From contig LJUQ01000012.1 in NCBI GenBank assembly GCA_001304505.1, positions 1 through 61,418 of the forward strand: 61,418 nucleotides of DNA. Reading direction: 5' to 3'. Position 1 is the stretch's first letter. The number at the start of each line of letters is the position of its first letter. A model generated the notes under the pieces. The model saw only the letters and a program-made list of their open reading frames with translations. It ran no database searches and was not told where the DNA came from. Below, piece after piece: positions 5,880 through 41,750 of the stretch. The stretch is from Bacteroides sp. SM23_62_1. GTDB lineage: Bacteria; Bacteroidota; Bacteroidia; Bacteroidales; SM23-62. The translations under genes were made by a program, and so were the position numbers.

Positions 5880-5939
5880 TACCTCCCCTGCATGTCCTGT
5901 CAGACGGGTTGCAGTCCCACTTCGGCAGACAGGGAGGTA
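5880..5939. repeat. GC-rich palindrome, degenerate CCTGC...CAGG mini-element inside TACCTC-C-GAGGTA
   Basis: tacctcccctg (5880-5890) pairs with cagggaggta (5930-5939); contains cttcggcagacagg, similar to the 32904 element. Confidence 0.5.
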
Positions 5940-6053
5940 ACAGAGATTCACTCTGTTCACTCTGTGGATCTTCCATTTACTATGTGATGATAATCATTTC
6001 AGGTTAGGAAATGCCGGATTTTAGTATTTTAGCACCTTTGAAAATATTTCAAC

Positions 6054-27042: not shown

Positions 27043-29229
27043 CTATTCATCAACAAAAAATAAATCTAACTGTCTTTTTGCCAGGTTGGCACGCGCAATT
27101 TCCACTTTAATCTGATCACCGAGCTGAAATTTCCTGCCTGTCCGCTTTCCGGTAATACAATAGTTATCCTCATCATAATCATAGAAATCGTCAAATAGGT
27201 CCCTGAGAGAAATCATCCCTTCACATTTACAGTGAACAAGCTCAACATACAAGCCCCATTCAGTCACACCAGAAATAACACCATCATAAATCTCTCCAAT
27301 TTTATCAGCCAGAAATTCAACCTGTTTATACTTAATTGATGCCCATTCAGCTTCCATGGCCTTCCTTTCCATTTCTGAAGAATGCTTGCATCGTTCTTCA
27401 TATTTTTTCTGACTTTTGGAATCCCCGTTTTGCAGATAATGATCCAGCAGTCTGTGAACCATTAAATCAGGATATCTCCGGATAGGGGATGTAAAATGCG
27501 TGTAGTATTGAAAAGCCAGGCCATAGTGGCCGATATTCATGGTGGAATATTCTGCTTTTGCCATGGTTCTAATCGCGAGACTTTCAATGATGTTTTGTTC
27601 ACTTTTCCCTTTTACATCTTCCACAAGTTTATTAATTGAACCGGCTATCTTTTTTTTACTCCCCATATTCAGGCTGTATCCAAAACGTTTGATAAACCAT
27701 GCAAAAGATTCAATTTTTTCCTGGTTTGGTTTATCATGTATCCTGTATACAAAAGTCTTTCCGATAGTCTTTGCAGGTGGTGCAAAATCATTATCCTCCA
27801 ATTGTTTAAGTTTCTTTGGTTTGCCAATCAATTCAGCCACCTTTTTATTGGCAAGTAGCATAAATTCTTCAATCAGCTGATTGGATGCTTTATTCTCTCT
27901 CCAGAAAACACTTAGAGGATATCCCTCATGGTCAATCTCAAATTTAACCTCAACCCTTTCGAAGGAAAACGAACCATTTCTGAATCGTTCAGCTCTTAAT
28001 TTTTGTGCTATTTCATGAAGTTCAAGAATTTCATCCTTCATATCACCTTCTTTCCACTCAATAATCTCCTGTACCTCATCATAATTAAAGCGGCGGTCTG
28101 AACATATAATTGTCCGTCCAAACCATTCATTTAGCACTTCGGCATTATTATTCATTTCAAAAACGGCGGAGTAACACAATTTTTCTTCCTGTGGCTTGAG
28201 GGAACAGATATTATTTGAAAGACGCTCCGGCAACATGGGTATAACCCTGTCAACAAGATATATAGAAGTTCCTCGTTCATAGGCTTCCTGATCAATGATG
28301 GATTTTTCACCAATATAATGTGACACATCAGCAATATGAACACCGACCTCACTGTTGCCGTTCTCAAGGTGTGTGATTGACAATGCATCATCAAAATCTT
28401 TTGCATCTGCCGGATCAATTGTAAAAGTTGGTACATCCCTGAAATCCCTCCGCTTGGCATAGTCATGCTCTGTTATACGGTCACTGATCAACTCCGCAGC
28501 ATGGTTAACCTCTTCAGGGAATTTCCATGGTAACTCAAATTCAGCAAGAATAGCATGCATTTCAACTTCATGCTGTCCCGGTTCACCAAGTACCTCGATA
28601 ATCTCCCCTGCAGGATTTTTAGTACCTTTTGGCCATCCTGTTATAACTGCAATAGCTTTATCCCCGTCTTTTGCCCCTTTTAATCTGTCGAGAGGAATAT
28701 ACAGGTCATAAGGCATCTGTTTTGTGCCGGAATTCAGAAATGCAAAATTGCCGGACACCTCAACAATCCCAACAAATGTTTTCTTCGCACGTTCAATAAT
28801 TTCAATAACCTCACCTTCCAACCGTTTGCCCTTCTTCCTGGCAAACAGATATACCTTAACATAATCTCCATCAAGTGCCTGGTTCAGATTATTCCGTGAA
28901 ACAAACACATCCTCCCCGCTCTCATCAGACTGGATATAAGCATAACCAAATTGCGTCATGTCAACTGTACCGAAAATATATCCGCCTCTGGATCTAAGCT
29001 TATATTTACCTGGAAATATCTCCATCAAATCATTGCGGTTTTTTAAAAACTCCAGAACTTCAATGATTTTTCGTTTTGTAACTGTATCAGTGATCTCAAG
29101 ACGTTTAGCTATTTGTTTATAGTTAAAGGTCTGTGTGGGATTATTTGTAAAAAGCCCAGTCATAGCACTGGTCAGCGCTTCACGGTGAAAAGGTCTGCCT
29201 GTTTTTTTCTTTTTTCCTTTCCTTGCCAT
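27043..29229 (-). CDS. rnr: Ribonuclease R
   Basis: 'TIDPADAKDFDDA', 'VHIADVS', 'YTHFTSPIRRYPDL', C-terminal S1 domain. Confidence 0.96.
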   Translation of the reverse strand: MARKGKKKKTGRPFHREALTSAMTGLFTNNPTQTFNYKQIAKRLEITDTVTKRKIIEVLEFLKNRNDLMEIFPGKYKLRSRGGYIFGTVDMTQFGYAYIQSDESGEDVFVSRNNLNQALDGDYVKVYLFARKKGKRLEGEVIEIIERAKKTFVGIVEVSGNFAFLNSGTKQMPYDLYIPLDRLKGAKDGDKAIAVITGWPKGTKNPAGEIIEVLGEPGQHEVEMHAILAEFELPWKFPEEVNHAAELISDRITEHDYAKRRDFRDVPTFTIDPADAKDFDDALSITHLENGNSEVGVHIADVSHYIGEKSIIDQEAYERGTSIYLVDRVIPMLPERLSNNICSLKPQEEKLCYSAVFEMNNNAEVLNEWFGRTIICSDRRFNYDEVQEIIEWKEGDMKDEILELHEIAQKLRAERFRNGSFSFERVEVKFEIDHEGYPLSVFWRENKASNQLIEEFMLLANKKVAELIGKPKKLKQLEDNDFAPPAKTIGKTFVYRIHDKPNQEKIESFAWFIKRFGYSLNMGSKKKIAGSINKLVEDVKGKSEQNIIESLAIRTMAKAEYSTMNIGHYGLAFQYYTHFTSPIRRYPDLMVHRLLDHYLQNGDSKSQKKYEERCKHSSEMERKAMEAEWASIKYKQVEFLADKIGEIYDGVISGVTEWGLYVELVHCKCEGMISLRDLFDDFYDYDEDNYCITGKRTGRKFQLGDQIKVEIARANLAKRQLDLFFVDE

Positions 29230-29245
29230 TTATGAGTATGATAAA

Positions 29246-29328
29246 GGTCACGGAGAATCACAGAGATGAGGCAGAACCACAGATAAATTCTCTGTAGAAC
29301 TCAATATACTCTTTGATTCTCTGTGCCC
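29246..29328. repeat. CACAGAG-unit palindrome, empty copy 1
   Basis: GGTCACGGAG AATCACAGAG ATGAGGCAGA ACCACAGAT / CTCTGTAG..CTCTTTGATT CTCTGTGCCC. Confidence 0.8.
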
Positions 29329-29344
29329 AAATTATATTTATAAA

Positions 29345-29352
29345 CAAAGGTA
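29345..29352 (-). promoter_or_regulatory. Bacteroidota -7 promoter element (TACCTTTG) for rnr
   Basis: TAnnTTTG on the minus strand, upstream of the palindrome and rnr. Confidence 0.55.
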
Positions 29353-29410
29353 ATTATTACTAATTTTACATATCAATAATAGCCATGGTTTCCTGACTGA
29401 TTTTTTTATT

Positions 29411-30880
29411 ATGGACCATATACTTTACTTATATAACACACTATCACATACAAAGGAGAAATTCGAACCGTTTCATCCCCCGCTGGTTGGGCTATATGTC
29501 TGCGGGCCCACGGTATACGGGGATCCCCATCTCGGTCATGCCCGCCCGGCAATAACTTTCGACCTGTTATACCGCTATCTCACGCACCTGGGTTTTAAGG
29601 TCCGTTATGTAAGAAACATCACAGATGTGGGTCATCTGGAACAGGATCTGGATGAAGGGGAAGACAAGATTGCCAGACAGGCCAGGATTGAAAAGATGGA
29701 ACCAATGGAAGTGGTTCAGTATTATATGAACCGCTACCACGATACAATGCGGAAATTGAATGTTCTCCCTCCAAATATTGAACCCCTTGCATCCGGACAT
29801 ATTATTGAACAGCAGGAACTGGTTAAGAAATTAATTGATAACGGATATGCATACGAAAGTAATGGTTCGGTTTATTTTGATGTGGAGAAATATAACAATA
29901 AAAATCATTATGGTAAACTTTCAGGCAGAAAAACTGAAGATTTACTGGCTGCTTCCCGCGAACTTGAAAAACAATCAGATAAGAGGAATCCATTAGATTT
30001 TGCTCTATGGAAGAAAGCTGAACCGCAACATATTATGCGCTGGCCTTCCCCCTGGAGCGATGGCTTCCCCGGCTGGCATGTTGAGTGTTCGGTAATGAGC
30101 CAGAAATACCTGGGTAACAGATTTGATATCCATGGTGGTGGTATGGACCTCCTGTTTCCTCATCATGAATGTGAAATAGCACAGACAGTTGCCAGCCAGG
30201 GAACGGAATCAGTTAAATACTGGATGCATAATAATATGGTAACCCTGAATGGAAAGAAAATGGGTAAATCACTCGGTAATTCCATAACCCTGGAGGAATT
30301 TATTACGGGACATCACAAACTCCTCAGTAATGCATATAGTCCAATGACAATCAGGTTCTTTATGCTTCAGGCCCATTACAGGAGTACGCTGGATTTTTCC
30401 AATGAGGCATTGCAGGCTGCAGCAAAAGGGCTTGACAGGTTGATGGAAGGATTTAAAAATATTGATAAGATTATCCCGGCTAAAAAATCCACTATCAATC
30501 CGGACCGCATTAAAAAGGAGCTATATGATGCTATGAATGATGATCTGAACAGTCCTATAGCCATATCACATCTTTTTGATGGTATCAGGGATATTAATTC
30601 AGTTGTCTCAGGAAATGAGAGCCTTAACTCATCGGATCTGGTGAAGATAAAAAAAATCTATCATACCTTCATATTCGATATCCTTGGACTTCAGGAGGAA
30701 AAGGATGATGCAAAAGGAAAAGGCCTGCTTTCCGACCTGATAAATCTCCTGCTCATGATACGTATTGATGCCAGGAAAAGAAAAGATTTTGAAACTGCCG
30801 ACCGGATCAGGGATGAATTATCCAGATTGGGAGTGGAAGTCCGGGATGTGAAAGATGGTTATGAGTGGAAGATAAATTAG
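29411..30880 (+). CDS. cysS: Cysteine--tRNA ligase
   Basis: '[15 protein letters not shown]', 'DFALWK', 'PGWHVECS', '[15 protein letters not shown]', 'KMGKSLGN'. Confidence 0.97.
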
Positions 30881-30966
30881 GTCACAGAGTAATACAGAGA
30901 AATATTGAGAACCACAGAGTAATTTCTCTGTGGTTCTTATTTATACCCTGTGATCCTGTATAAACC
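30880..30966. repeat. CACAGAG-unit palindrome, empty copy 2
   Basis: GGTCACAGAG TAATACAGAG AAATATTGAG AACCACAGAG / CTCTGTGGTT CTTATTTATA CCCTGTGATC CTGTATAAACC; begins on the last base of the cysS stop codon. Confidence 0.8.
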
Positions 30967-32749
30967 AATATATTACAAGCATAAATTGTACAAATCCCAA
31001 AAAATAAAAATAGGCCCTACCAGTATTGGAGGAGATGCCCCCATCCGTGTCCAGTCAATGACCACTACCAGTATACTGGATACAGAGAAAACTATAGACC
31101 AGTGTATTAGAATAATCAACGCAGGTGCTGATTTTGTCAGGCTCAGCGTCCGAAGTATGAAGGAAGCTGAAAATCTAAGGATCATTCAAAATAAACTCAG
31201 AGATAAAGGAATAAATAATTCATTGATTGCAGATGTTCATTTTAATCCCAAAATAGCAGTTGCTGCAGCAAATATTGTTGATAAGGTAAGGATAAATCCC
31301 GGAAATTTTGCTGATGACAGTATCAGGGAAAAGCTTATTCCTTTGCTTAATTGTTGCAGACAGAGCGGAACTGCTATCAGGATTGGAGTCAACCATGGAT
31401 CACTGTCAAACCATATATTGAATAAATACGGCGCTACACCGGAGGGAATGATTGAATCCGCCATGGAATATCTCAGGATCTGCATGGAGGAAAATTTTTT
31501 TAACCTGGTGGTATCACTCAAATCAAGCAATACCAGGATAATGATTCACGCTAACAGGCTCCTGGTAAAGAGGATGATGGAAGAAAACATGAATTTCCCC
31601 CTGCACCTTGGTGTAACCGAATCAGGTGAAGGAGAGGATGGAAGGATCCGCTCTGCCGCAGGAATAGGGACATTGCTTGCTGAAGGAATAGGCGATACAA
31701 TAAGGCTGTCACTTACGGAAGATCCGGAAAATGAAATAGCAGCTGCCCTGAAACTTTTACATAATGGAAAAGGCAGGTTGAAAATAATCACTGATAAACC
31801 TGCCTGGAATGAGTATCATTATTCAAAACGAAAAACAAATGAAATATTGGATATTGGTGGAAGGAATGTGCCTGTTGTTGTATCTTCCATTCCTGTTATA
31901 AAAGGAACAAAACTAGATGATGATGCAATCATTGCTGACTTTCTCTATTCATCAAATCCTGATTTTCATTTAGTACATGAAAAATCTTCCTTCATTACGG
32001 ATGCTCCAGGCTGGCAAAGCCATGGATCTGAATTTAATAAACTCTATCCCTCCTTTAACCGGGAGGAATTCATGAAAACATCTTATAGATCTGAATCACT
32101 CAATTTTATCCAAATCCATCCGGAAGAAATCAATAATCACCTGCTAGATAATCTTACAGAATTTAGTAATATCGTATTCATATTATTATGTCAACCTGGT
32201 AAACGAAATAAATTAATCCGGGCATTCAATCTACTTTACCAGTCCGGTTTGCCTGTCCCTGTTATATTAAAATCAGAATATCCCTGTAGTGATAAAGAAC
32301 TTTATATCCTGAAAGCTGCCTCAGACCTTGGTATGTTTTTTACCGACGGCCTGGCAAATGGATTATGGCTTGAAAATCCAAATTTTCCCTCCGGCGAAAA
32401 TGTGAACCTTACATTCCAGATCTTACAGGCAACAAGGGCCAGGATGTTCAAAACTGAATACATTGCCTGCCCGTCGTGTGGGCGGACCTTATTTAACATA
32501 CAGGATACACTTGCCAGGGTTAAAAATTCCACTCATCATCTTAAACACCTTACAATTGCCGTGATGGGATGTATCGTTAATGGGCCGGGGGAAATGGCTG
32601 ATGCTGACTACGGATTTGTTGGCAGTGGCCCGGAAAAGATAACTTTATATAAGGATAAACAACCTATAAAGAAAAATATCCCTGCACAGTATGCCGTTGA
32701 GGAATTGATTAATTTAATTAAAGAATGTGGTGATTGGATTGAAAAATAA
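30950..32749 (+). CDS. ispG: (E)-4-hydroxy-3-methylbut-2-enyl-diphosphate synthase, long form; true start may be TTG 30986
   Basis: 'IRVQSMT', 'ADVHF', 'RINPGN', 'RIGVNHGSLS', 'PLHLGVTE', 'GIGDTIR', 'CPSCGRT', 'MGCIVNGPGE'. Confidence 0.95.
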   Translation: MILYKPIYYKHKLYKSQKIKIGPTSIGGDAPIRVQSMTTTSILDTEKTIDQCIRIINAGADFVRLSVRSMKEAENLRIIQNKLRDKGINNSLIADVHFNPKIAVAAANIVDKVRINPGNFADDSIREKLIPLLNCCRQSGTAIRIGVNHGSLSNHILNKYGATPEGMIESAMEYLRICMEENFFNLVVSLKSSNTRIMIHANRLLVKRMMEENMNFPLHLGVTESGEGEDGRIRSAAGIGTLLAEGIGDTIRLSLTEDPENEIAAALKLLHNGKGRLKIITDKPAWNEYHYSKRKTNEILDIGGRNVPVVVSSIPVIKGTKLDDDAIIADFLYSSNPDFHLVHEKSSFITDAPGWQSHGSEFNKLYPSFNREEFMKTSYRSESLNFIQIHPEEINNHLLDNLTEFSNIVFILLCQPGKRNKLIRAFNLLYQSGLPVPVILKSEYPCSDKELYILKAASDLGMFFTDGLANGLWLENPNFPSGENVNLTFQILQATRARMFKTEYIACPSCGRTLFNIQDTLARVKNSTHHLKHLTIAVMGCIVNGPGEMADADYGFVGSGPEKITLYKDKQPIKKNIPAQYAVEELINLIKECGDWIEK

Positions 32750-32805
32750 GAGTTATCAAAGGTTTTGTATTTTTTCTAATTTAAATATCCTGAATAAACA
32801 TATAT

Positions 32806-32945
32806 TTATTGCCGATTTCACCGATTATAAAGCAGATTCCGCCGGTCATAAATAACCGGGATTTTAAATATCCGCGAAATCTGCGTTAATATCTGAGGTA
32901 ATCCCTGCCTGCGTGCCGAAGCACTTCGGCAGGCAGGGGCGAGAA
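32806..32945. repeat. Palindromic element with GC(A/C)GAT / ATC(T/G)GCG units, interrupted by a 34-bp CCTGCC insert (32904-32937)
   Basis: Left: gccgat, caccgat, gcagat, gccggt. Right: atccgcg, atctgcg, atctgag, atc[insert]ggcgagaa. Confidence 0.7.
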
Positions 32946-32989
32946 GCCTTATATATCAAATATTAATATATTAATTCGTTGTTTTAATT

Positions 32990-33631
32990 ATGATCGATCT
33001 GAAAAACATTAAAAACATCATCCTTGACCTGGGAAGGGTTATTCTTGAAATCCACCTTGAAAAAACCATCATTGCATTTAAAGAATTTGGCATCCCTCAG
33101 ATTGATGATCTTGATATCGTATTTGCCAGGTATCCTTTTTTTTACCATTTTGAAATAGGAACAATCCGTCCTGAACAGTTTATATCCGAAATCCGGAAAG
33201 CTTCCGGAAATAATATACCGGATCATGTTATTGCTGATGCCTGGAATGCGATGATCGGGGGATTCATCGATGGATCGATTGATACAATCATGAAGTTAAA
33301 ATTAAAATACCGGGTGTTCCTGCTCAGTAATACCAATGCAATGCATGAAATAGTATACAATAACCATCTGAAAAAGGATCATGGTATTGCAAATCTTTCA
33401 GAATTATTTGAAAAAGTATATTATTCCCACACCCTTCATATGAGTAAACCCGATATCAAAATATTTGAATATGTTTTGAAAGACAGTAATCTTGTTCCGG
33501 AAGAAACCTTATTTGTTGATGATCTCCTGATTCATATTGAAAATGCAGCTAAACTTGGAATACAAACATATCAACTTGTGCCTCCACTACAGATAAAGGA
33601 TATATTCTTTCAGGTCACAGAGAACCTATGA
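32990..33631 (+). CDS. HAD-superfamily phosphatase (YihX-like)
   Basis: 'ILDLGRV' motif I, 'LLSNTN', 'KPD', 'FVDD'. Confidence 0.88.
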   Translation: MIDLKNIKNIILDLGRVILEIHLEKTIIAFKEFGIPQIDDLDIVFARYPFFYHFEIGTIRPEQFISEIRKASGNNIPDHVIADAWNAMIGGFIDGSIDTIMKLKLKYRVFLLSNTNAMHEIVYNNHLKKDHGIANLSELFEKVYYSHTLHMSKPDIKIFEYVLKDSNLVPEETLFVDDLLIHIENAAKLGIQTYQLVPPLQIKDIFFQVTENL

Positions 33632-33697
33632 GACAAAATAGATCCACAGAGTTTTTTCTTTGTGGTTATTATAAAATCTCTGATGCCCTCTGTGCGC
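33613..33697. repeat. CACAGAG-unit palindrome, empty copy 3
   Basis: GGTCACAGAG AACCTATGAG ACAAAATAG ATCCACAGAG / CTTTGTGGTT ATTATAAAAT CTCTGATGCC CTCTGTGCGC. Confidence 0.78.
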
Positions 33698-33713
33698 TGA
33701 ATTATTATGTTTT

Positions 33714-34820
33714 ATGTTAATTAACGGAAAAGCATATCAGGCAATCTGGCTTGATGAGACAGACCAAAAAACTGTCAGATTCATCAATCAGAATGAACTC
33801 CCTTTCCGGTTTGTCATTGACGAACTTCATACTGCACAGGATGCATTGAATGCTATCCGGGAAATGAAAGTAAGAGGCGCACCACTAATCGGTGTAACCG
33901 CAGCATTTGGTATTTATCTTGCAACCCTCGAAGCAGTAAAAAATAAAGATCCCTTACAAAATATTTTCTCCTTCGCTGAAAAACTGCGTAACGTCCGGCC
34001 AACAGCTGTTAATCTTGACTTTGCAGTAAATCGTCTGACCGAGACTATCAGATCTTTTACAAATCCCGAAAAATTACCCGAAGCAACATTGAAGGCCACT
34101 TTAAATATCCTGAATGATGAAACAGAATCATGCCGGCAGATAGGGCTTCATGGATTCACTGTTTTAGATACGATATATAAAGAAAAATCCAAAAAAACCG
34201 TGAATATATTAACTCATTGCAATGCAGGATGGCTTGCCTGTATTGATTATGGAACCGCCACAGCCCCTATATATATGGCATACGATCATGGTATCCCCGT
34301 CCATGTGTGGGTTGATGAAACCCGCCCAAGGAACCAGGGAAGCCGGCTAACTGCCTGGGAACTTTTACAGCATGGTGTTCCCCATACTGTGATTGTCGAT
34401 AATGCAGGAGGTCATCTTATGCAACATGGGTTGGTTGACCTGGTAATCGTAGGAAGTGATCGCACAACCCGTTCAGGTGATGTGGCCAATAAAATCGGAA
34501 CCTATCTGAAAGCACTGGCAGCAAAAGATAATCATGTGCCCTTTTATGTCGCCCTCCCATCATCCTCAATAGATTTTTCGATTCGGAATGGCTTCCGTGA
34601 AATTCCTATCGAACAAAGAGATCCGGATGAGGTCAGATATATAGAAGGTCTTGACCAATCCGAAAGAAAGAAGGTATTGACCATGGATCCTGCCAGCCCT
34701 GTTTCCAATTATGGTTTTGACGTAACCCCTGCCAGGCTCATATCTGGATTAATTACTGAAAGAGGAATATGCGAAGCTTCTGAAAAAGGCCTGGCCGAAC
34801 TGTTTCAGGAAAAATTCTAG
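33714..34820 (+). CDS. mtnA: S-methyl-5-thioribose-1-phosphate isomerase
   Basis: 'VRGAPLIG', 'RPTAVNL', 'LTHCNAG', 'DETRPRNQG', 'GDVANKIGT', 'FDVTP'. Confidence 0.95.
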   Translation: MLINGKAYQAIWLDETDQKTVRFINQNELPFRFVIDELHTAQDALNAIREMKVRGAPLIGVTAAFGIYLATLEAVKNKDPLQNIFSFAEKLRNVRPTAVNLDFAVNRLTETIRSFTNPEKLPEATLKATLNILNDETESCRQIGLHGFTVLDTIYKEKSKKTVNILTHCNAGWLACIDYGTATAPIYMAYDHGIPVHVWVDETRPRNQGSRLTAWELLQHGVPHTVIVDNAGGHLMQHGLVDLVIVGSDRTTRSGDVANKIGTYLKALAAKDNHVPFYVALPSSSIDFSIRNGFREIPIEQRDPDEVRYIEGLDQSERKKVLTMDPASPVSNYGFDVTPARLISGLITERGICEASEKGLAELFQEKF

Positions 34821-34833
34821 AAATTATTTTCAA

Positions 34834-35300
34834 GGTCACAGAGGCTCACAGAGAATAAAGAGTGCCACAGAGATTAGTTTATGATCCTTTTAAGGCCATC
34901 TTTTAATCGAAGTACGTTAATATTAATTAATAATCCTAATTTGTAATTTCCTAACTTTAAGTAAGTTATGACTTGTGCTGTATGAATAATATTTATTGCT
35001 TCAACTGCTTTTAACTCGACAACCACTTTATCCTCAACCAACCAATCTATTCTGTAGCCATAATTAATAATAACTTCTTCATATTCAAGTGGTAAGATGA
35101 CTTTCTTCCTGACAAACAAACCACTTTTTGTTAAATCATAATATAAGCATTCCTTATAGGCATTTTCAAGCATACCAGGTCCAAATCTTTTATGTACCTT
35201 GATAGCACAATTGATAATTTTGCCAGTAATTATATTTAGTTCCATATTCTTTTCATTTTGACTCTGTGGTTCTCAGATTTCTCTGTGATACTCCGTGACC
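34834..35300. mobile_element. Putative GxxExxY-nuclease cassette bounded by 39-bp inverted CACAGAG-unit arms
   Basis: Left arm 34834-34872 GGTCACAGAG GCTCACAGAG AATAAAGAG TGCCACAGAG; right arm 35262-35300 CTCTGTGGTT CTCAGATTT CTCTGTGATA CTCCGTGACC. The arms are seen directly; mobility is inferred. Confidence 0.6.
34874..35245 (-). CDS. GxxExxY family protein (PD-(D/E)xK nuclease fold)
   Basis: 'VHKRFGPGMLENAY' (GxxExxY), 'RIDWLVEDKVVVELKA', 'AQVITYLK', 'GLLIN'. Confidence 0.92.
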   Translation of the reverse strand: MELNIITGKIINCAIKVHKRFGPGMLENAYKECLYYDLTKSGLFVRKKVILPLEYEEVIINYGYRIDWLVEDKVVVELKAVEAINIIHTAQVITYLKLGNYKLGLLININVLRLKDGLKRIIN

Positions 35301-35382
35301 TCTATATCTTTATCCCAAAAACTATGAATTATCGGTATCCTTTGTCTTTATTTTTGATTAACTTTTAAAACTTATTGATCGT

Positions 35383-36126
35383 ATGAAAATAGCTATCATT
35401 TCAGATATCCATTCAGACATCCGGAGCCTTGAAAAAGCATTGAAAATGATAAGAAAAACAGGCTTTGACCAGCTTGTTTGCCTGGGTGATATTGCCGGAT
35501 ATAGCCACCATTATCATAAAGATCTGGATGGCAGGGATTCCAATGGTTGTATCGAGATGGTTGAAGAAACATGTAACATTACCATAGCAGGTAACCACGA
35601 CCATTATTGGTCCGGGAAGCTCCCGGTTTACCTGAAGAAAAAAATATATCCAGATAACTGGTTTGAGCTTGACCTGTCAGAACAAATAAAAATCTCACGT
35701 AATACCATCTGGCTTTATCATGACGAAATAAAGGATACCATCAATGATGATCACATACAGTTTCTCGCATCCCTTCCTGAAACACATATTTTTCCCGTTG
35801 AGAATTTCACTATCCTTTTCTCTCATTTTCTCTATCCGGATCTTACCGGGGCCACAAAATTTTTCCCTTCAAAAATCGGTCATTTCAGGCCTCATTTAAA
35901 ATACATGAAGCAGCAAAAAAGTCTGTATGGAATTATGGGGCATGGCCACCTGCAGGGATATTCCATTACCTCCAGGAAGCAATTCAGATATAATTATTTT
36001 GGTAAAACAGGGCTGGATTTAATCCCGCAGATCATAATAGGCCCGGCGATTACCAGGGGAGATAGCAAAAATGGCTTTATGATTCTGAATACTTCAATAC
36101 CGGAGCTGGAGGTTATTCAAATATAA
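35383..36126 (+). CDS. Calcineurin-like metallophosphoesterase
   Basis: 'ISDIH', 'LGDI', 'GNHD', 'SH', 'GHGH'. Confidence 0.88.
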   Translation: MKIAIISDIHSDIRSLEKALKMIRKTGFDQLVCLGDIAGYSHHYHKDLDGRDSNGCIEMVEETCNITIAGNHDHYWSGKLPVYLKKKIYPDNWFELDLSEQIKISRNTIWLYHDEIKDTINDDHIQFLASLPETHIFPVENFTILFSHFLYPDLTGATKFFPSKIGHFRPHLKYMKQQKSLYGIMGHGHLQGYSITSRKQFRYNYFGKTGLDLIPQIIIGPAITRGDSKNGFMILNTSIPELEVIQI

Positions 36127-36183
36127 CAATATTCAAGGATTCACTTTTAGCCACCCTTAGATAAAAATACAGAACAATTAAAT

Positions 36184-36191
36184 TAACTTTG
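36184..36191 (+). promoter_or_regulatory. Bacteroidota -7 promoter element (TAACTTTG)
   Basis: TAnnTTTG 24 nt before ATG 36216. Confidence 0.45.
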
Positions 36192-36215
36192 TATTCCTAA
36201 ATACCCGTTAATAAA

Positions 36216-38744
36216 ATGGATGAATCCGGGTTTCGGTTCAGATATATAATCAGTTATATTCTTCCTGCATTCCTGACAATTGCGCTATTTATTTTCATAT
36301 TCTTCTTAGTTATTATTCCCTGGTTCGAATCCTGCTTGTTTGACCGTAAGCGTGAAATGATCCGTGAACTGACCTATTCAACAATCAGTATCATCGATAA
36401 TCTGAATAAGGAAACATCCACTGATTCTCTTTCTGCTGTTGAGGCCCGGAAGCAGGCCATAGATGTTATCCGGAATATGCGATATGGTGAAGAACTGAAA
36501 GATTATTTCTGGATCACAGATACAGTACCTGTAATGATCCTTCATCCCTACAGGAATGATTTGGAGGGTAAAAGGCTGGACGATTATAAAGATCCTAAGG
36601 GTAAAGCTTTATTCATAGAATTTGTAAAGGTTACAAAAGAAAAGGGTGAGGGATATGTAGATTATATGTGGCAATGGAAAGATGACTCCACCTTGATTGT
36701 TCCTAAATTATCATTTGTGAAATTATATGAACCATGGGGATGGATTATAGGAACTGGCATATATATTGAAGATGTAAAGCAGGAAATTTACAGGAGGAAA
36801 ATCCACCTTGCCATGATATCAGGTGGTATCATCCTGGTTATAACCATATTACTATCATTTATTATCAGACAAAGCCTTAAATCAGAAAGAATCAGAGAAC
36901 AGGCTGAAGAAGAACTCGAACTTTCAAAAGAGAAATACCAGGCTCTCATCGACACGTCTCCTGAAGGGACCATCATGTATATTGATGGCAGGTTTGTTTA
37001 TTCCAATATCATTTTCCTGGCCATGACAGGATACACACAACATGAGATATCACAGTTAAATTTCAGGGATATTTTCTACATCAAAACTGATCCTGATTTT
37101 TCAATTGCCAAACTTCGTAAAATATTAAATGAATCAGGTAAAACAATGAATTTCGAGGCACAGGCCAGGAATAAGGATGGAAAGTACCGGGATGTGATTG
37201 TGATGGCATCTGCTATCACTTACCTCGATAAAGAAGGCATTATTTTTATTACCAAGGATATCAGCCGGAGACAAAAATATGGGATTGAAAAAGAAACACT
37301 GACCGATGAATTACAATCATCACTTCTTTTGATGAATTTACCGGTAACATCTTTCATGAAAGAACATATAAAATGTAATATGAACCAGAGTATCTATGAT
37401 GCTGCGATACTCATGAACCGTAAAAACCAGGATGCTATCCTGGTTACCAAGGATGACAGGAATTACATTGGCATTATTACCGATTCTGATCTCCGGAACC
37501 GTGTGGTAGCAGGTGAATATCCGTTCACTAACCCGGTATATGAAATCATGAGCTCTCCTCTCATTACAATACCCGACCAGGCTTTATTGTACGAAGCCAT
37601 CCTTCTTGTTGAAGAAAAAAAGATCTCTCATCTTGCTGTTTCAGGTAAATCGGGTGATATCGTTGGTATCTTCAGTAACGAAGATCTTATCGAAGTTCAG
37701 AGAAATTCCATTTCATACCTGATTAAAGAAATTAAAAATGTAAGAACAGTCGAAAATCTTAAAAATATACATCAAAAAGTGCCGGGACTAGTAAAGATCC
37801 TCCTTGATAGCGGTGCCCGGATACAGAATATTACTCACCTGATCAGCACCATAACAGATGCTATTACAGAACGTGTTATTGAATTTGCCGTGGAAGAAAT
37901 GGGAGCGCCCCCTGTCAGATTTGCATTCCTCGTACTTGGCAGTGAGGGACGCAGGGAACAAACTATGGTCACGGATCAGGATAATGCCATCATCTATGAG
38001 GATGTTTCCTATGATAAAATATCAGAAATAAATAAGTACTTCCTTTACTTTGGACAAAAAATTAACCTCTGGCTCGACAGAATAGGATATAATTACTGTA
38101 GAGGTGATATCATGGCCGGTAATCCACAATGGTGCCAGCCTGTTTCAAAATGGAAGGATTATTTTTCCAACTGGATTCAGAACGAGACACGGGATAGTTC
38201 TCTTGGTATATCTATCTTCTTTGACTTTCGTACCGTCTACGGTGATCATCAATTCGCCGAACAACTCCGTTCCCATATCGATAAGATCTCCTACGACAAG
38301 CCGGACTTCTACCAGAGAATGGCACAGGATACCCTGAAATATAAACTGCCTCTGAATATATTTAAATCCGCTTCGGTTGATTCGCCAGGAGCTAAACCAG
38401 AAACGATGGACCTCAAAACAGGAATTATGCCTGTGACTGACTTTGCACGCATATACTCACTTTATCACCGGATAATAGAAACAAATACAATTCTGCGTAT
38501 TGAAAAAATATTCCAAAAAGGTGAGATTAATAAATCAGAATATGATGAAATCACACATGCCTATGATTTCCTTATGGGCCTCCGCTTTAAAATACAATTG
38601 GCTTCTATCCTGAATAATGAGATCCCTAAAAATATAATTTCCTCACAGGATCTGACGGAAATAGAGCGAAGTATGACTCGCAATATTTTTTCCAGAATTT
38701 CCGGTTTCCAGACCAAACTGACTAATGATCTGAAATGGAGCTGA
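36216..38744 (+). CDS. Membrane sensor: TM-sCache_2-TM-PAS-CBS pair-DUF294/DUF294_C putative nucleotidyltransferase
   Basis: Cache 'YFWI...HPY...DPKGK...GEGYVDYMW...PKLSFVKLYEPWGWIIGTGIY'; PAS ending 'KDIS'; CBS 'GIITDSDLRNRVVA...IMSSPLITI'; NTase 'GSEGRREQTMVTDQDNAI', 'IMAGNPQWC', 'FFDFRTVYGD'. Confidence 0.85.
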   Translation: MDESGFRFRYIISYILPAFLTIALFIFIFFLVIIPWFESCLFDRKREMIRELTYSTISIIDNLNKETSTDSLSAVEARKQAIDVIRNMRYGEELKDYFWITDTVPVMILHPYRNDLEGKRLDDYKDPKGKALFIEFVKVTKEKGEGYVDYMWQWKDDSTLIVPKLSFVKLYEPWGWIIGTGIYIEDVKQEIYRRKIHLAMISGGIILVITILLSFIIRQSLKSERIREQAEEELELSKEKYQALIDTSPEGTIMYIDGRFVYSNIIFLAMTGYTQHEISQLNFRDIFYIKTDPDFSIAKLRKILNESGKTMNFEAQARNKDGKYRDVIVMASAITYLDKEGIIFITKDISRRQKYGIEKETLTDELQSSLLLMNLPVTSFMKEHIKCNMNQSIYDAAILMNRKNQDAILVTKDDRNYIGIITDSDLRNRVVAGEYPFTNPVYEIMSSPLITIPDQALLYEAILLVEEKKISHLAVSGKSGDIVGIFSNEDLIEVQRNSISYLIKEIKNVRTVENLKNIHQKVPGLVKILLDSGARIQNITHLISTITDAITERVIEFAVEEMGAPPVRFAFLVLGSEGRREQTMVTDQDNAIIYEDVSYDKISEINKYFLYFGQKINLWLDRIGYNYCRGDIMAGNPQWCQPVSKWKDYFSNWIQNETRDSSLGISIFFDFRTVYGDHQFAEQLRSHIDKISYDKPDFYQRMAQDTLKYKLPLNIFKSASVDSPGAKPETMDLKTGIMPVTDFARIYSLYHRIIETNTILRIEKIFQKGEINKSEYDEITHAYDFLMGLRFKIQLASILNNEIPKNIISSQDLTEIERSMTRNIFSRISGFQTKLTNDLKWS

Positions 38745-38745
38745 T

Positions 38746-40860
38746 ATGCCAGATCAAAAAGCGACATCCACCCGATTTAAACTTATTGGCACAGTAATTT
38801 TTATTTTTACTCTTTTTATCATCGCCTGGTATTTTAATTACCCTGAGATCCTGCTTAAAAAACCTCAGTCTATTCACTTCCCCAGGCAGGCAGATTGTGC
38901 GTCATTAGCCCTGAATTATTACCAGAGTGATATGGATTTTTTTCATCCCGAAATCCACAACCTGACCTCCGATGATGGGACCAGTGGTAAATGTGCACCC
39001 AGCGAATTGCCGTTCCTGTATTACCTGGTGGCAATACTTTATAAAATGTTTGGGTATCATGACTTTATTTACAGAATCATCAATACCCTGATTTTCTTCC
39101 TCGGACTATTTTACTTTTTCAGGCTTCTGTATGTATTGCTGAATGATATATTCTGGTCGGTATCACTGCCTCTCATCCTGCTTTCATCACCCGTAATAGC
39201 CTATTATGCTAATAATTACCTGACAAATACCTCTGCACTGGCTTTTGTTATTATGGCATGGTTTTATTTTATCAATTATTATATTCATGGACAACATAAA
39301 AATCTTTATCTCAGCGCATTATTCTTTTTCCTTGCCGGTGCATTTAAAATAACCGGGCTTTTCAGCCTGCTATCCCTTGCGATAATATTTACTCTGGAAG
39401 GATTGAATATTATCCGTTGCCATCAGGATGGCAGAAGGATTTTTGGTAATGGTTTAAAACGGATTATCCCTTATATCCCTGGTGTCATTATTATCTTTTT
39501 ATGGATAGTTTATGCGCACCGGTATAATCAAATCCATGACTGTTATTACTTCTCAACAAGGTCATTCCCCATCTGGGATATGAATACGGAAGCTACAAGA
39601 AATGTCATCAAGGCTGTGGTTAAAATCTGGTTCACTCAGTATTTCAGTATTTGGATATATTTCTTCCTTATCATATTGTTTATTTATATGCTGGTTAACC
39701 GTCTTTCCGCTCATCCTCTCCTGTTCTATACCATTATGTTTCTTATTCCAATTGTCCTGCTTTATGTTCTGATGCAATTTTTTATGTTGAAGGATCACGA
39801 TTATTATACAATCAACATCTATATTCTGCCAATATTCATAATTATCTCTTCATTCAGCCTTATGAAGCAAAAACATTACAGACTCTTTAAATCCCTCATT
39901 TTAAAATCCCTGTTTTTTTGCTTTGTCATTTATCATCTCTGGTATGCTAAATCCAAACTGGATGAAAGATATAACAATAAAGAAAACATTTATTACATGC
40001 TTCATGATTACTATGAAATCACACCTTTTCTGGAACAGAATGGGATCCTGCTGAAGGATACAGTTATTTCCATCTCAGGTGAAACGCAGCTTCCTCTTTA
40101 CCTGATGAACCGTAAAGGATGGATTGAACACATTGAAACACAATTTGGTGAAGGAGAAAAAATCCTTTATAACAGGGATAGTACCGGTATTCAACACTCC
40201 ATAGATAAGGGGGCTAAATACATGATTGTCAGGGACCTGGAAGAACTTATCGTGAAACCATATCTTCAGAGCTATGCTACAAACCTCGTGGGCCGTTTTA
40301 ATAAGATCCATATTTTCGATCTGGTAAATAAAAATCCCAATTTTACAATCCCTGAAAGAAAGATCCTGCAGTCTATACTGTGCGATGCCGAGCAGGTTAC
40401 AAATGACAGCAAGGACTACCTTTCCTTCTCTGATTCCCTTTTATTTGAATTTGGAATAACACAGAGTGACGAAACATCATGGTCAGGAAAGTATTCTGCC
40501 AAACTTAATCCTTCACATCCCTTTGGCATGACAATAACTCTCCCACAGGTTAAGACAGGTGAGAGCTTTGCAATAGAAGTTAAATATTCCGGTGTCCCTG
40601 AAAAGGGATTGATTATTGCCTCTGCATTAACGTCTGACGTATTCTATTATAATGAAAATACGATAATTCCGGATACGGTGCCGGGCTGGTATAATATTTC
40701 TGCAGAATTCTTTGTTCCCGGGGAAATGGATGGTAAAGAAATGAAAATATATCTCTGGTATACAGGCAATGATTCTGCTTATTTTGATGATTTTAAAATA
40801 ACCAGATATAGTTCATATTCATTTGTAAATAAGGTCACAGAGGGCCACAGAGATAAATGA
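38746..40860 (+). CDS. Polytopic membrane glycosyltransferase (GT-C/ArnT-like) with C-terminal beta-sandwich domain
   Basis: 'HFPRQADCAS..LNYY', 'SELPFLYY', many TM helices; soluble C-terminal 'WSGKYSAKL...YFDDFKI'. Confidence 0.65.
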   Translation: MPDQKATSTRFKLIGTVIFIFTLFIIAWYFNYPEILLKKPQSIHFPRQADCASLALNYYQSDMDFFHPEIHNLTSDDGTSGKCAPSELPFLYYLVAILYKMFGYHDFIYRIINTLIFFLGLFYFFRLLYVLLNDIFWSVSLPLILLSSPVIAYYANNYLTNTSALAFVIMAWFYFINYYIHGQHKNLYLSALFFFLAGAFKITGLFSLLSLAIIFTLEGLNIIRCHQDGRRIFGNGLKRIIPYIPGVIIIFLWIVYAHRYNQIHDCYYFSTRSFPIWDMNTEATRNVIKAVVKIWFTQYFSIWIYFFLIILFIYMLVNRLSAHPLLFYTIMFLIPIVLLYVLMQFFMLKDHDYYTINIYILPIFIIISSFSLMKQKHYRLFKSLILKSLFFCFVIYHLWYAKSKLDERYNNKENIYYMLHDYYEITPFLEQNGILLKDTVISISGETQLPLYLMNRKGWIEHIETQFGEGEKILYNRDSTGIQHSIDKGAKYMIVRDLEELIVKPYLQSYATNLVGRFNKIHIFDLVNKNPNFTIPERKILQSILCDAEQVTNDSKDYLSFSDSLLFEFGITQSDETSWSGKYSAKLNPSHPFGMTITLPQVKTGESFAIEVKYSGVPEKGLIIASALTSDVFYYNENTIIPDTVPGWYNISAEFFVPGEMDGKEMKIYLWYTGNDSAYFDDFKITRYSSYSFVNKVTEGHRDK

Positions 40861-40918
40861 GATACACAGGGAATGCATCTCTGTGGTTCTCTTAAACACA
40901 CAGTGGCTCTCTGGGACC
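40833..40918. repeat. CACAGAG-unit palindrome, empty copy 4
   Basis: GGTCACAGAG GGCCACAGAG ATAAATGAG ATACACAGGG / CTCTGTGGTT CTCTTAAACA CACAGTGGCT CTCTGGGACC. Confidence 0.82.
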
Positions 40919-41018
40919 TTTTTTATAAATAACATCAGGATAACAATCAAAATAATTCAGTTTTTAGTACCTTAACACCCTTATTCATTTATCATTAAGA
41001 ATATTATAAGAGTGGGAA

Positions 41019-41750
41019 ATGACTTCCAGTATTAAAACACTTTCAATTATTATCCCGGCATATAATGAGGAATCAACCATCGGGACGGTTCTGGATAAAG
41101 TTGTTCAGGTTGATCTTGATAATATCAAAAAGGAGATCATTGTTGTTAACGATCATTCCTCCGATCATACAATGGAAATTGTGCAGAAGTATATAGACAA
41201 AAACCCGGATGTCGCAATCAAGCTTGTGAACCATGATAAAAACCTTGGAAAGGGTGCTTCTTTACATTCGGGTTTTAACCAGGCCACGGGCGATTGCATA
41301 ATCATCCAGGATGCTGATTTTGAATATGATCCACGCGAATATATGATTTTACTGGGTCCAATCATAGAAGGTCATGCTGATGTTGTCTATGGATCACGAT
41401 TTATGGGATCCAATCCTCACAGGATATTATTCTTCTGGCATACGATAGGAAACCGTTTCCTGACATTCCTGTCAAATATATTCACCAACCTGAATCTGAC
41501 CGATATGGAAACAGGATTCAAATGTTTCCGGAAGGAGATTATTAAAAGTATAAATCTCAAGGAAAAAAGATTTGGTTTTGAACCGGAAGTCACGGCAAAA
41601 ATATCCAGGATCCCCGGCATCAGGATCTATGAGGTCGGGATATCGTATTACGGGCGAAGGTATGAAGAAGGGAAAAAAATCAAGTGGAAAGATGGATTCC
41701 GTGCCCTTCTCTGCATTGTAAAATATAATCTCTTCAGAAAAAGAATCTGA
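41019..41750 (+). CDS. GT2 glycosyltransferase (polyprenol-phosphate glycosyltransferase/DPM1-like)
   Basis: 'IIIPAYNEE', 'NLGKGA', 'QDADFEYDP', 'VYGSRF', 'DMETGFK', 'FEPEVT'. Confidence 0.92.
   Translation: MTSSIKTLSIIIPAYNEESTIGTVLDKVVQVDLDNIKKEIIVVNDHSSDHTMEIVQKYIDKNPDVAIKLVNHDKNLGKGASLHSGFNQATGDCIIIQDADFEYDPREYMILLGPIIEGHADVVYGSRFMGSNPHRILFFWHTIGNRFLTFLSNIFTNLNLTDMETGFKCFRKEIIKSINLKEKRFGFEPEVTAKISRIPGIRIYEVGISYYGRRYEEGKKIKWKDGFRALLCIVKYNLFRKRI

Follow-up and report, generated by a model that had tools for sequence, protein, structure and literature searches.

The window analysed here is a stretch of 61,418 nucleotides (nt) of contig LJUQ01000012.1 from the draft genome of Bacteroides sp. 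SM23_62_1 (GCA_001304505.1; 4.74 Mb, 305 contigs, 92% complete; hereafter G000). Between protein-coding genes of its middle part lie four short palindromes (e1 to e4) and one cassette with arms of similar design, whose loop encodes a small nuclease-like protein of the GxxExxY family (Table 1). A preliminary description of the window had reported the four palindromes as dispersed 'empty' counterparts of the cassette arms, situated near the gene and at gene boundaries, and had suggested that they were non-autonomous copies, excision scars or docking sites. All four were recovered with the build described: each starts with GGTCAC(A/G)GAG and has a 5-7-nt loop flanked on either side by four units that are about 10 nt long. 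In each arm, this first unit is followed by xxxCACAGAG, by a third unit that ends in GAG and is degenerate in every arm of the four copies, and by a fourth unit xxxCACAGAG; after the loop comes the mirror image, ending in a CTCTGTGACC-like unit.

The empty palindromes and the cassette arms indeed belong to one family: they share the four-unit design, and the arms of the former are up to 88% identical to those of the latter. All four copies, situated at gene boundaries as had been noted, lie no more than 5.6 kb from the cassette, and three of the four overlap the end of the upstream open reading frame (ORF) and supply its stop codon. The heptamer CACAGAG occurs 20 times on the two strands of the window, as compared with 4.16 +/- 1.82 (largest 9) in 100 shuffles, and 15 of these 20 words fall inside the five elements. 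Part of a sixth, degenerate member persists elsewhere in the window, its left side being occupied by a G+C-rich hairpin repeat. Ahead of its conserved N-terminus, ispG lacks an in-frame ATG; the candidate starts are a GTG inside e2 (30950) and a TTG at 30986, and the insertion of e2 may have reshaped the start of this gene. The stretch is present in four DNA sequencing runs as contigs at about 5x (no RNA run was listed). Among these read-derived contigs, one from X3 covers 34553-35532 and confirms the cassette, and one from X1 skips 40821-40955 around e4 (side 45, depth 3.3), which is too weak to indicate a polymorphism. No part of the window matched Rfam at gathering thresholds.

Table 1. Positions of the elements and neighbouring genes in the window.
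Feature	Position	Strand	Description
G+C-rich hairpin repeat	5888-5936		CCCTGCCTGC...GCAGGCAGGG
Sixth family member, degenerate	5938-5989 (about)		right arm of three CTCTGTG-like units kept
RNase R	27043-29229	-	
e1, gene-less palindrome	29246-29328		GGTCACGGAG...CTCTGTGCCC, 4+4 units, loop TAAAT, 65.5 bits; located between RNase R and cysS, whose starts diverge
cysS	29411-30880	+	
e2, gene-less palindrome	30880-30966		68.2 bits; last right-hand unit degenerate, CTGTATAAACC; from the last base of the cysS stop codon to the first possible ispG start codon
ispG	about 30950-32749	+	
Degenerate CGCAGAT-type palindrome	32820-32890		GCAGATT ... AATCTGCG; small CCGG hairpin nested in its loop
G+C-rich hairpin repeat	32904-32939		same repeat as at 5888-5936
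HAD hydrolase	32990-33631	+	
e3, gene-less palindrome	33613-33697		62.4 bits; gives the HAD hydrolase ORF its last 6 codons and stop; 16 nt before mtnA
mtnA	33714-34820	+	
Cassette, 469 bp	34833-35301		two arms and the GxxExxY gene; sole gene-bearing family member in G000
Left arm	34833-34872	+	units AGGTCACAGAG, GCTCACAGAG, AATAAAGAG, TGCCACAGAG
GxxExxY protein gene	34874-35245	-	123 amino acids (aa); fills the loop
Right arm	35262-35301	-	same four-unit design
Metallophosphoesterase (mpe)	35383-36126	+	
DUF294 nucleotidyltransferase	36216-38744	+	
704-aa ORF	38746-40860	+	without family
e4, gene-less palindrome	40833-40918		77.8 bits; gives the 704-aa ORF its last 9 codons and stop
GT2 glycosyltransferase	41019-41750	+	

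The two arms of the cassette are each 40 nt long, 78% complementary and separated by 389 nt, of which the gene leaves only 1 nt on the side of the left arm and 16 nt on that of the right. As this leaves no room for a promoter in the loop, the gene must be read through its upstream arm, and the transcript predicted from the sequence would therefore carry both arms. The encoded protein matches TIGR04256 (129.5 bits, cut-off 35) and PF13366 (PDDEXK_3; 128.2 bits, cut-off 22), a family whose function one survey lists as unknown (PMC3424549). The GxxExxY motif and the catalytic residues of the PD-(D/E)XK type (G24xxE27xxY30, D67, E77xK79 and Q91xxxY95) are invariant or at least 90% conserved among 24 sequences. 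An AlphaFold model (predicted local distance difference test score, pLDDT, 95.6) found its best Foldseek matches in lambda exonuclease, the Cas4 proteins SSO0001 and Pcal_0546, AdnAB nuclease domains and Hjc resolvases, with E values from 3e-3 to about 0.1 (3e-3 to 7e-3 for the top matches, lambda exonuclease and Cas4) and query-normalised template-modelling scores (TM-scores) of 0.46-0.58. A search of solved structures with the protein sequence gave nothing below E 0.47. According to the model, the protein looks like a minimal RecB/Cas4-type core devoid of an extra DNA-binding domain, which would suit recognition of a structure or of a short word better than that of a long specific site. G000 has two GxxExxY loci, of which the second (contig C191) is interrupted by a stop codon and has arms built from a different unit; the family search of this genome detected no further remnants.

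A profile of the four copies, taken through a single iteration with nhmmer over the contigs of G000, retrieved 70 loci, namely 60 full-length copies (at least 60 nt) and ten half copies, two of which are the cassette's own arms. The palindromes thus form a family of about 60 full-length members in this genome, and a single gene-bearing copy stands against about 60 gene-less ones. In a crude scan for pairs of left and right arms, 46 of the 49 pairs were separated by 5-52 nt and one by the 389 nt of the cassette; the remaining two (216 and 2727 nt) correspond to a tandem array and a chance pair and are not cassettes. In the general design, each arm has GGTCACAGAG as its outermost unit and contains up to four CACAGAG cores in 10-bp phase; the A+T loop is short, uniformly of 5-8 nt in the gene-less copies.

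The copies are spread over the whole genome, which is at odds with a local origin around the gene. Fifty-eight of the 60 full-length copies lie between genes, in tandem (40), divergent (12) and convergent (6) spacers, in line with the genomic background (2132, 489 and 480, respectively). They also cluster with one another away from the gene: 11 pairs lie within 6 kb, as compared with 3.7 expected (P = 0.002), and 8 pairs are left when the contig of the window is set aside. The presence of four copies near the gene is thus partly a general habit of the family. As previously noted, no target-site duplication is apparent in the 33 copies with defined ends; most flanking bases are A on the left side and T on the right side, a pattern that only lengthens the palindrome by one base, and since the copies are old, a short duplication could have decayed.

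Elements end in GGTCAC...GTGACC, with GGTCACAGAG and CTCTGTGACC termini, and the first ten columns are 78-100% conserved when 50 arm ends from 25 copies are pooled, GGTCAC itself having been the criterion for the ends of a copy. Conservation is 80-92% in the second core and 80-98% in the 7-mer cores overall, as compared with 44-60% for the spacers between them. Outside the cores, the arms of one copy are 56% complementary to each other and 61% complementary to those of other copies; the within-copy value lies above the cross-copy mean in only 6 of 25 copies. Because the arms of a copy are no more complementary to each other than to those of other copies, the palindrome persists as a family consensus and not through compensatory change: conservation resides in the 7-mers rather than in arm-to-arm pairing, and selection for pairing was ruled out by the absence of copy-specific compensatory change. 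Single strands would nevertheless fold stably (median -35.5 kcal/mol, z -7, 31 copies). Among the 465 pairs formed by these 31 copies, identity has a median of 68%; no pair exceeds 83%, which rules out a recent burst of copying.

Several copies have grown or been combined with other repeats. At G000:C109:20782-21082, a 20-nt double unit (AATAAAGAGGTCCGCAGAG-like), repeated about ten times in tandem, lengthens one palindrome on its left side, indicating that arms can grow like a minisatellite. At G000:C123:24190-24320, a GTGTGATTAA...TTAATCACAC palindrome that is in turn enclosed by further unit arrays has a short CACAGAG palindrome at its exact centre, and the same composite is found again at C96:15470, C157:2581, C44:320 and C92:22658.

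The history of the family was followed in four congeners of G000 (G001-G004) and in more distant relatives. A tree of HAD plus mtnA gave ((G000,G002)97,G001)99,(G003,G004)100, and the operon-like gene order rnr-cysS-ispG-HAD-mtnA-mpe-DUF294 is retained through the host family. Palindrome pattern matches were counted in 41 relatives by dialect, that is, by the 7-mer type of the arm units. CACAGAG and CGCAGAT matches number 35 and 5 in G000, 50 and 10 in G001, and 19 and 17 in G002; G007 has 6 and 0, G003 has 0 and 1, G004 has none of either type, and the 15 genomes of genus g5 have no CACAGAG match at all and no CGCAGAT match in 13 cases (one match in each of the other two). The family consequently entered after the split from G003/G004.

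The presence/absence polymorphism at orthologous loci that the preliminary description had asked about was found. The element of the e1 site is present in G000 and G001 and absent from G003, G004, G010, G014 and G006, the latter three from further genera. At the e2 site, G000 has 4+4 units and G001 2+3, and G003 has a 10-nt spacer free of any element; at the e3 site, G000 has 4+4 units and G001 and G002 have 2+4, with nothing in G003, G004 and G010. The copy on contig C176 is shared by G000, G001 and G002 (the G003 contig ends at the site), and that on contig C300 by G000 and G001, G004 lacking it. Orthologous copies differ by whole units and are decaying in both lineages. Since several copies are orthologous across species, they are old, and many predate the three species G000, G001 and G002. 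Metagenome contigs with mtnA, surveyed for near-identical strains that would reveal insertion junctions, gave 33 loci, the best of them 75% identical over the full length and hence too distant for this.

The main new point of the analysis is same-site turnover. At five orthologous sites, out of about nine compared and not chosen blind, a spacer occupied in one species is occupied in another by a palindrome of a different dialect, by another cassette or by a nested cassette with a four-helix-bundle gene. Between mtnA and mpe, G000 carries the CACAGAG cassette and both G001 and G002 carry a CGCAGAT-type cassette at the same place and in the same orientation, with a GxxExxY protein 37-38% identical to that of G000 (the gene of G001 has an in-frame TAA); the spacer of G003 is 6 nt long, and the HAD plus mtnA tree points to the G000 state as the derived one. 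At the C300 site, the CACAGAG palindrome of G000 and G001 has a CGCAGAT palindrome as its counterpart in G002, where the state is derived, and G004 has nothing. At the e4 site, CACAGAG in G000 corresponds to a CGCAGAT-type palindrome in G002. A gene-bearing CACAGAG cassette of G001 (contig C53) has a gene-less 4+4 CGCAGAT palindrome as its counterpart in G000 (contig C287) and G002, with nothing in G003 and G004. An intact CGCAAAG-armed cassette of G001 (contig C174) retains in G002 only the same left arm plus about 70 nt of the 3' end of the nuclease gene: a four-helix-bundle gene (TIGR02436, 107.8 bits) with GGCTAAG tandem arms is nested in the cassette and cuts off its nuclease gene. Finally, the spacer between ispG and HAD is bare in G003 and G004 and has three different fillings in the other species, namely the degenerate palindrome of Table 1 in G000, a clean CGCAGAT palindrome in G002, and a broken four-helix-bundle gene with GCAGCAG arms and a lone CACAGAG right arm in G001. 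By a rough estimate, a second family of tens of copies among about 3100 spacers would strike an already occupied one with a chance of about one in a hundred. The suggestion that the palindromes are docking sites thus gains some support, in that occupied spacers are re-used by other dialects and cassettes.

The G+C-rich hairpin repeat of the window also occurs at G000:C56:1690-1770, at C237:10475-10544 and in several G001 contigs. Its copies show 89-100% identity to one another, also when those of G000 are compared with those of G001, and in other genomes it occupies the loops of heptamer palindromes (for example G001:C456, CGCAGAT; G033:C657, a CACAGAG pair). Four-helix-bundle genes (TIGR02436, related to ribosomal RNA intervening sequence and Avd proteins) gave nine matches in G000, on contigs C104, C37, C62, C90, C209, C70, C182, C100 and C65. 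Most are framed by inverted runs of a unit of their own, mostly back-to-back 6-10-mers (such as TCGTGAG, GGTTGTC or CCCTGCT), in contrast to the GxxExxY arms, which are phased at 10 bp.

A GxxExxY match was detected in 18 of the 41 relatives, and nearly all of the genes examined are framed by inverted unit arrays, the units being CACAGAG, CACAAAG, CGCAAAG, CGCAGAT, CACGAAT, CACTAAG, CGCTAAG, CACATAG, CAGAATT or CAGACAA. Protein clades track the unit type across host families: a CGCAGAT clade unites G031 and G002 (support 100/97), a CGCAAAG clade G033 and G001 (97/88), and a CACAGAG clade G007 and G000 (98/97, proteins 70% identical). On this evidence, arms and gene travel together between distant hosts. 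In a wider species collection, the 80 closest relatives of the protein (56-68% identical) come mostly from Bacteroidota, with some from Ignavibacteriota and Acidobacteriota. By a strict count, 28 of the 80 share a 7-mer in at least two copies per arm, 29 have a weaker signal and 23 none, and the repeated shared word is almost always CACAGAG, CACAAAG or CGCAAAG. On the tree of the closest 77 relatives (44 labelled rows), the dialect label changes 12 times, as compared with a mean of 19.9 (minimum 15) in shuffles, and dialect is therefore clustered but labile on the protein tree. Phage records gave no match, and plasmid records gave 7 distant ones.

The genome-wide association of the palindromes with GxxExxY genes, whose absence would have counted against the preliminary description by its own terms, holds up, if modestly. 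Among 301 genomes of the order, 10 of the 11 palindrome-rich genomes besides G000 (at least three CACAGAG palindrome matches) carry the gene, as compared with 178 of 301 overall, a binomial tail of about 0.03 by our own arithmetic, with kinship ignored. Palindromes lie directly beside a GxxExxY gene in G070, G308 and G089. G000 has an intact CACAGAG-armed gene and is rich in CACAGAG palindromes, and G002 has an intact CGCAGAT gene and a CGCAGAT count 3.4 times that of G000 in a smaller assembly. Counts of the CGCAAAG pattern are uninformative, with a background of 1-3 matches in many genomes. Pairs of the form CGCAAAG...CTTTGCG in G000, G001 and G002 (for example G000:C73:4410-4445) have a conserved 22-nt centre (CTCTGATTAACAGA-like) and seemingly constitute a distinct small repeat family.

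We therefore favour, tentatively and at slightly less than even confidence, the reading that the four stretches belong, as members without a gene, to a dispersed and selfish family of heptamer-array palindromes, resembling repetitive extragenic palindromic (REP) sequences and miniature inverted-repeat transposable elements (MITEs) and tied to a Cas4/RecB-like nuclease. That they are such elements is very probable; that the nuclease encoded in the loop acts on the repeats is possible but somewhat doubtful. The nuclease would recognise the phased 7-mer arrays, or the hairpin or cruciform that they can form, and would cut there, host break repair or copying would move the arms with or without the gene, and existing palindromes would be the preferred landing sites. 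The gene-less copies would then be non-autonomous, that is, mobilised by the nuclease of the cassette, as the preliminary description had suggested, and the system in G000 looks old and nearly quiescent. In its boldest form, which we consider rather unlikely, the proposal describes a self-contained mobile element of under 0.5 kb, whose sole gene is a 123-aa Cas4/RecB-like nuclease that would read its own arrays of helically phased 7-mers or their cruciform and, by cutting there, spread itself and gene-less satellites through host repair, with rival dialects and four-helix-bundle cassettes overwriting one another at shared sites.

Various observations weigh against a direct link between the enzyme and the repeats, and many of them are what would be expected if the palindromes were the primary mobile or self-propagating units, driven by some other enzyme or by insertion targeted to hairpins, and the GxxExxY and four-helix-bundle genes were small selfish cargo settled in the loop and carried along with the arms, the nuclease not acting on the repeats. 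This alternative we regard as a minority possibility, though a serious one. Two unrelated gene families share the loop position, four-helix-bundle genes with no nuclease fold occupying analogous arms; and some palindromes of G000 have further palindromes nested in their loops, the composites recurring as units. Large palindrome populations exist where a cognate gene was not detected: G002 has its 19 CACAGAG matches and no CACAGAG-armed gene in an assembly 73% complete, G148 has 54 matches and its nearest gene is CACGGAG-armed, and no cognate gene was found in G315 and G185. Conversely, G031 has a CGCAGAT-armed gene and 0 CGCAGAT palindrome matches, and G033 combines 13 TIGR04256 matches with 1 CACAGAG match. 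G001, with its intact CGCAAAG-armed gene, shows no palindrome excess (5 matches vs 7 and 7 in its sisters). Dialect changes frequently among close proteins, and with 12 changes among 44 labelled rows any recognition must be loose. Gene-less palindromes within 3 kb of the 80 related genes number 7 in 422 kb, a local density of 16.6 per Mb that is not clearly higher than the 11 per Mb of G000, and no recent copies were seen in that genome. Against the cargo alternative, no candidate driver was found: the only gene-bearing arm pair in the draft of 305 contigs is the nuclease cassette, the three Y1-transposase-like genes of G000 carry repeats of their own and not CACAGAG, and palindrome-rich genomes are enriched for GxxExxY genes (10 of 11 vs 59%).

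A role for the host is improbable. The palindromes could be terminators or attenuators, mRNA-stabilising hairpins or arrays bound by a host protein, their likeness to the cassette arms being secondary, and the stable folds predicted for single strands, the inner stems of e2, e3 and e4 that a lax terminator scan picks, the conservation of the 7-mer cores over the spacers and the persistence of several copies across three species would all be in keeping with such a function. However, the spacer classes equal the background, 12 of the 58 intergenic copies, like e1, lie between divergent genes, and no copy-specific compensatory change was detected. Moreover, at the same operon junctions the element was not found in G003, G004 and 15 genomes of the neighbouring genus, dialects are exchanged at the same site, and the orthologous copies decay in both lineages. 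That gene-less palindromes mark the former place of a cassette that has lost its gene from the loop, as the term excision scars implied, is very improbable: the gene does sit exactly at the palindrome apex, and one GxxExxY gene of G002 is reduced to a remnant beside its arm, but none of three cassette sites has a same-type empty palindrome in a sister genome, gene-less loops are uniformly short with no other gene remnant in G000, and about 60 gene-less copies face one gene-bearing copy.

Among known systems, the closest is that of REP and REPIN repeats and the REP-associated tyrosine transposases (RAYTs). As in that system, short intergenic palindromes in tens of copies accompany one or a few copies of a small nuclease-type gene that has the same repeat on either side, the type of repeat travels with the gene, and populations persist across species. 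Unlike in that system, the gene framed here is of the PD-(D/E)XK type and not a Y1 HUH transposase (PF01797) and sits in the loop, the arms are arrays of 2-5 phased 7-mers instead of one 20-40-nt hairpin, and no two palindromes are identical or nearly so. The ends, GGTCAC...GTGACC, also lack the GTAG or CGTC tag of REP repeats (PMC3733652). The heptamer system thus works like REPIN-RAYT but fails its defining features in enzyme fold, end tag and repeat form. The three PF01797 matches of G000 are flanked by repeats other than CACAGAG; at G000:C212:1400-2100, a Y1-transposase (RAYT-like) gene is flanked by REP-like hairpins of its own (CCGTCAGCTTTAGCTGACGG type), and a classical REP-RAYT pair seems to coexist in this genome with the heptamer-array system.

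With MITEs the family shares small size, terminal inverted repeats, intergenic location, nesting, and many gene-less copies beside a rare gene-bearing one. It differs from them in showing no target-site duplication and in a gene-bearing form of only 469 bp that encodes a 123-aa nuclease. The scan of arm pairs, which extended to distances of 3 kb, revealed no parent insertion sequence that combines such ends with a DDE transposase; the assembly, a draft of 305 contigs and 92% complete, may lack multi-copy insertion sequences. The ORF-bearing 23S rRNA intervening sequences of Coxiella and Leptospira (PMC4990558) likewise have a small ORF inside inverted repeats able to form a long stem, and their four-helix-bundle (S23p-like) family sits in analogous heptamer arms in G000 and relatives, which links the two kinds of element; the five elements of the window, by contrast, all lie between protein-coding genes, and the ORF encodes a nuclease.

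Free-standing homing endonuclease genes include some of the PD-(D/E)XK type. Like them, the cassette is a small nuclease gene inside a sequence that also exists without it, and its occupancy turns over, variants replacing each other; unlike them, it has many dispersed target-like sites, nearly all gene-less, rather than a single allele, and a same-type pair of gene-bearing and gene-less states at an orthologous site was seen at 0 of 3 sites. No account of heptamer arms around GxxExxY genes was found in the literature covered, which did not extend to subscription journals and supplements. What we describe looks like an undescribed selfish repeat-plus-nuclease system that re-uses the same gaps between genes.

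GxxExxY proteins are common, at least one being encoded in 178 of the 301 sampled genomes of the order. If the boldest form of the proposal is true, the cassette would represent a new class of transposon-like or homing element devoid of transposase or recombinase. Same-site turnover offers natural before/after pairs. Should the nuclease drive the repeats, REPIN-RAYT would be joined by a second repeat-plus-enzyme partnership, independent of it and distinct in both enzyme fold and repeat architecture. Such a partnership would also account for changed ORF ends such as those produced by three of the four copies studied here, for recurrent contig breaks in draft assemblies, and for much of the odd short tandem and palindromic intergenic DNA in Bacteroidota-like genomes.

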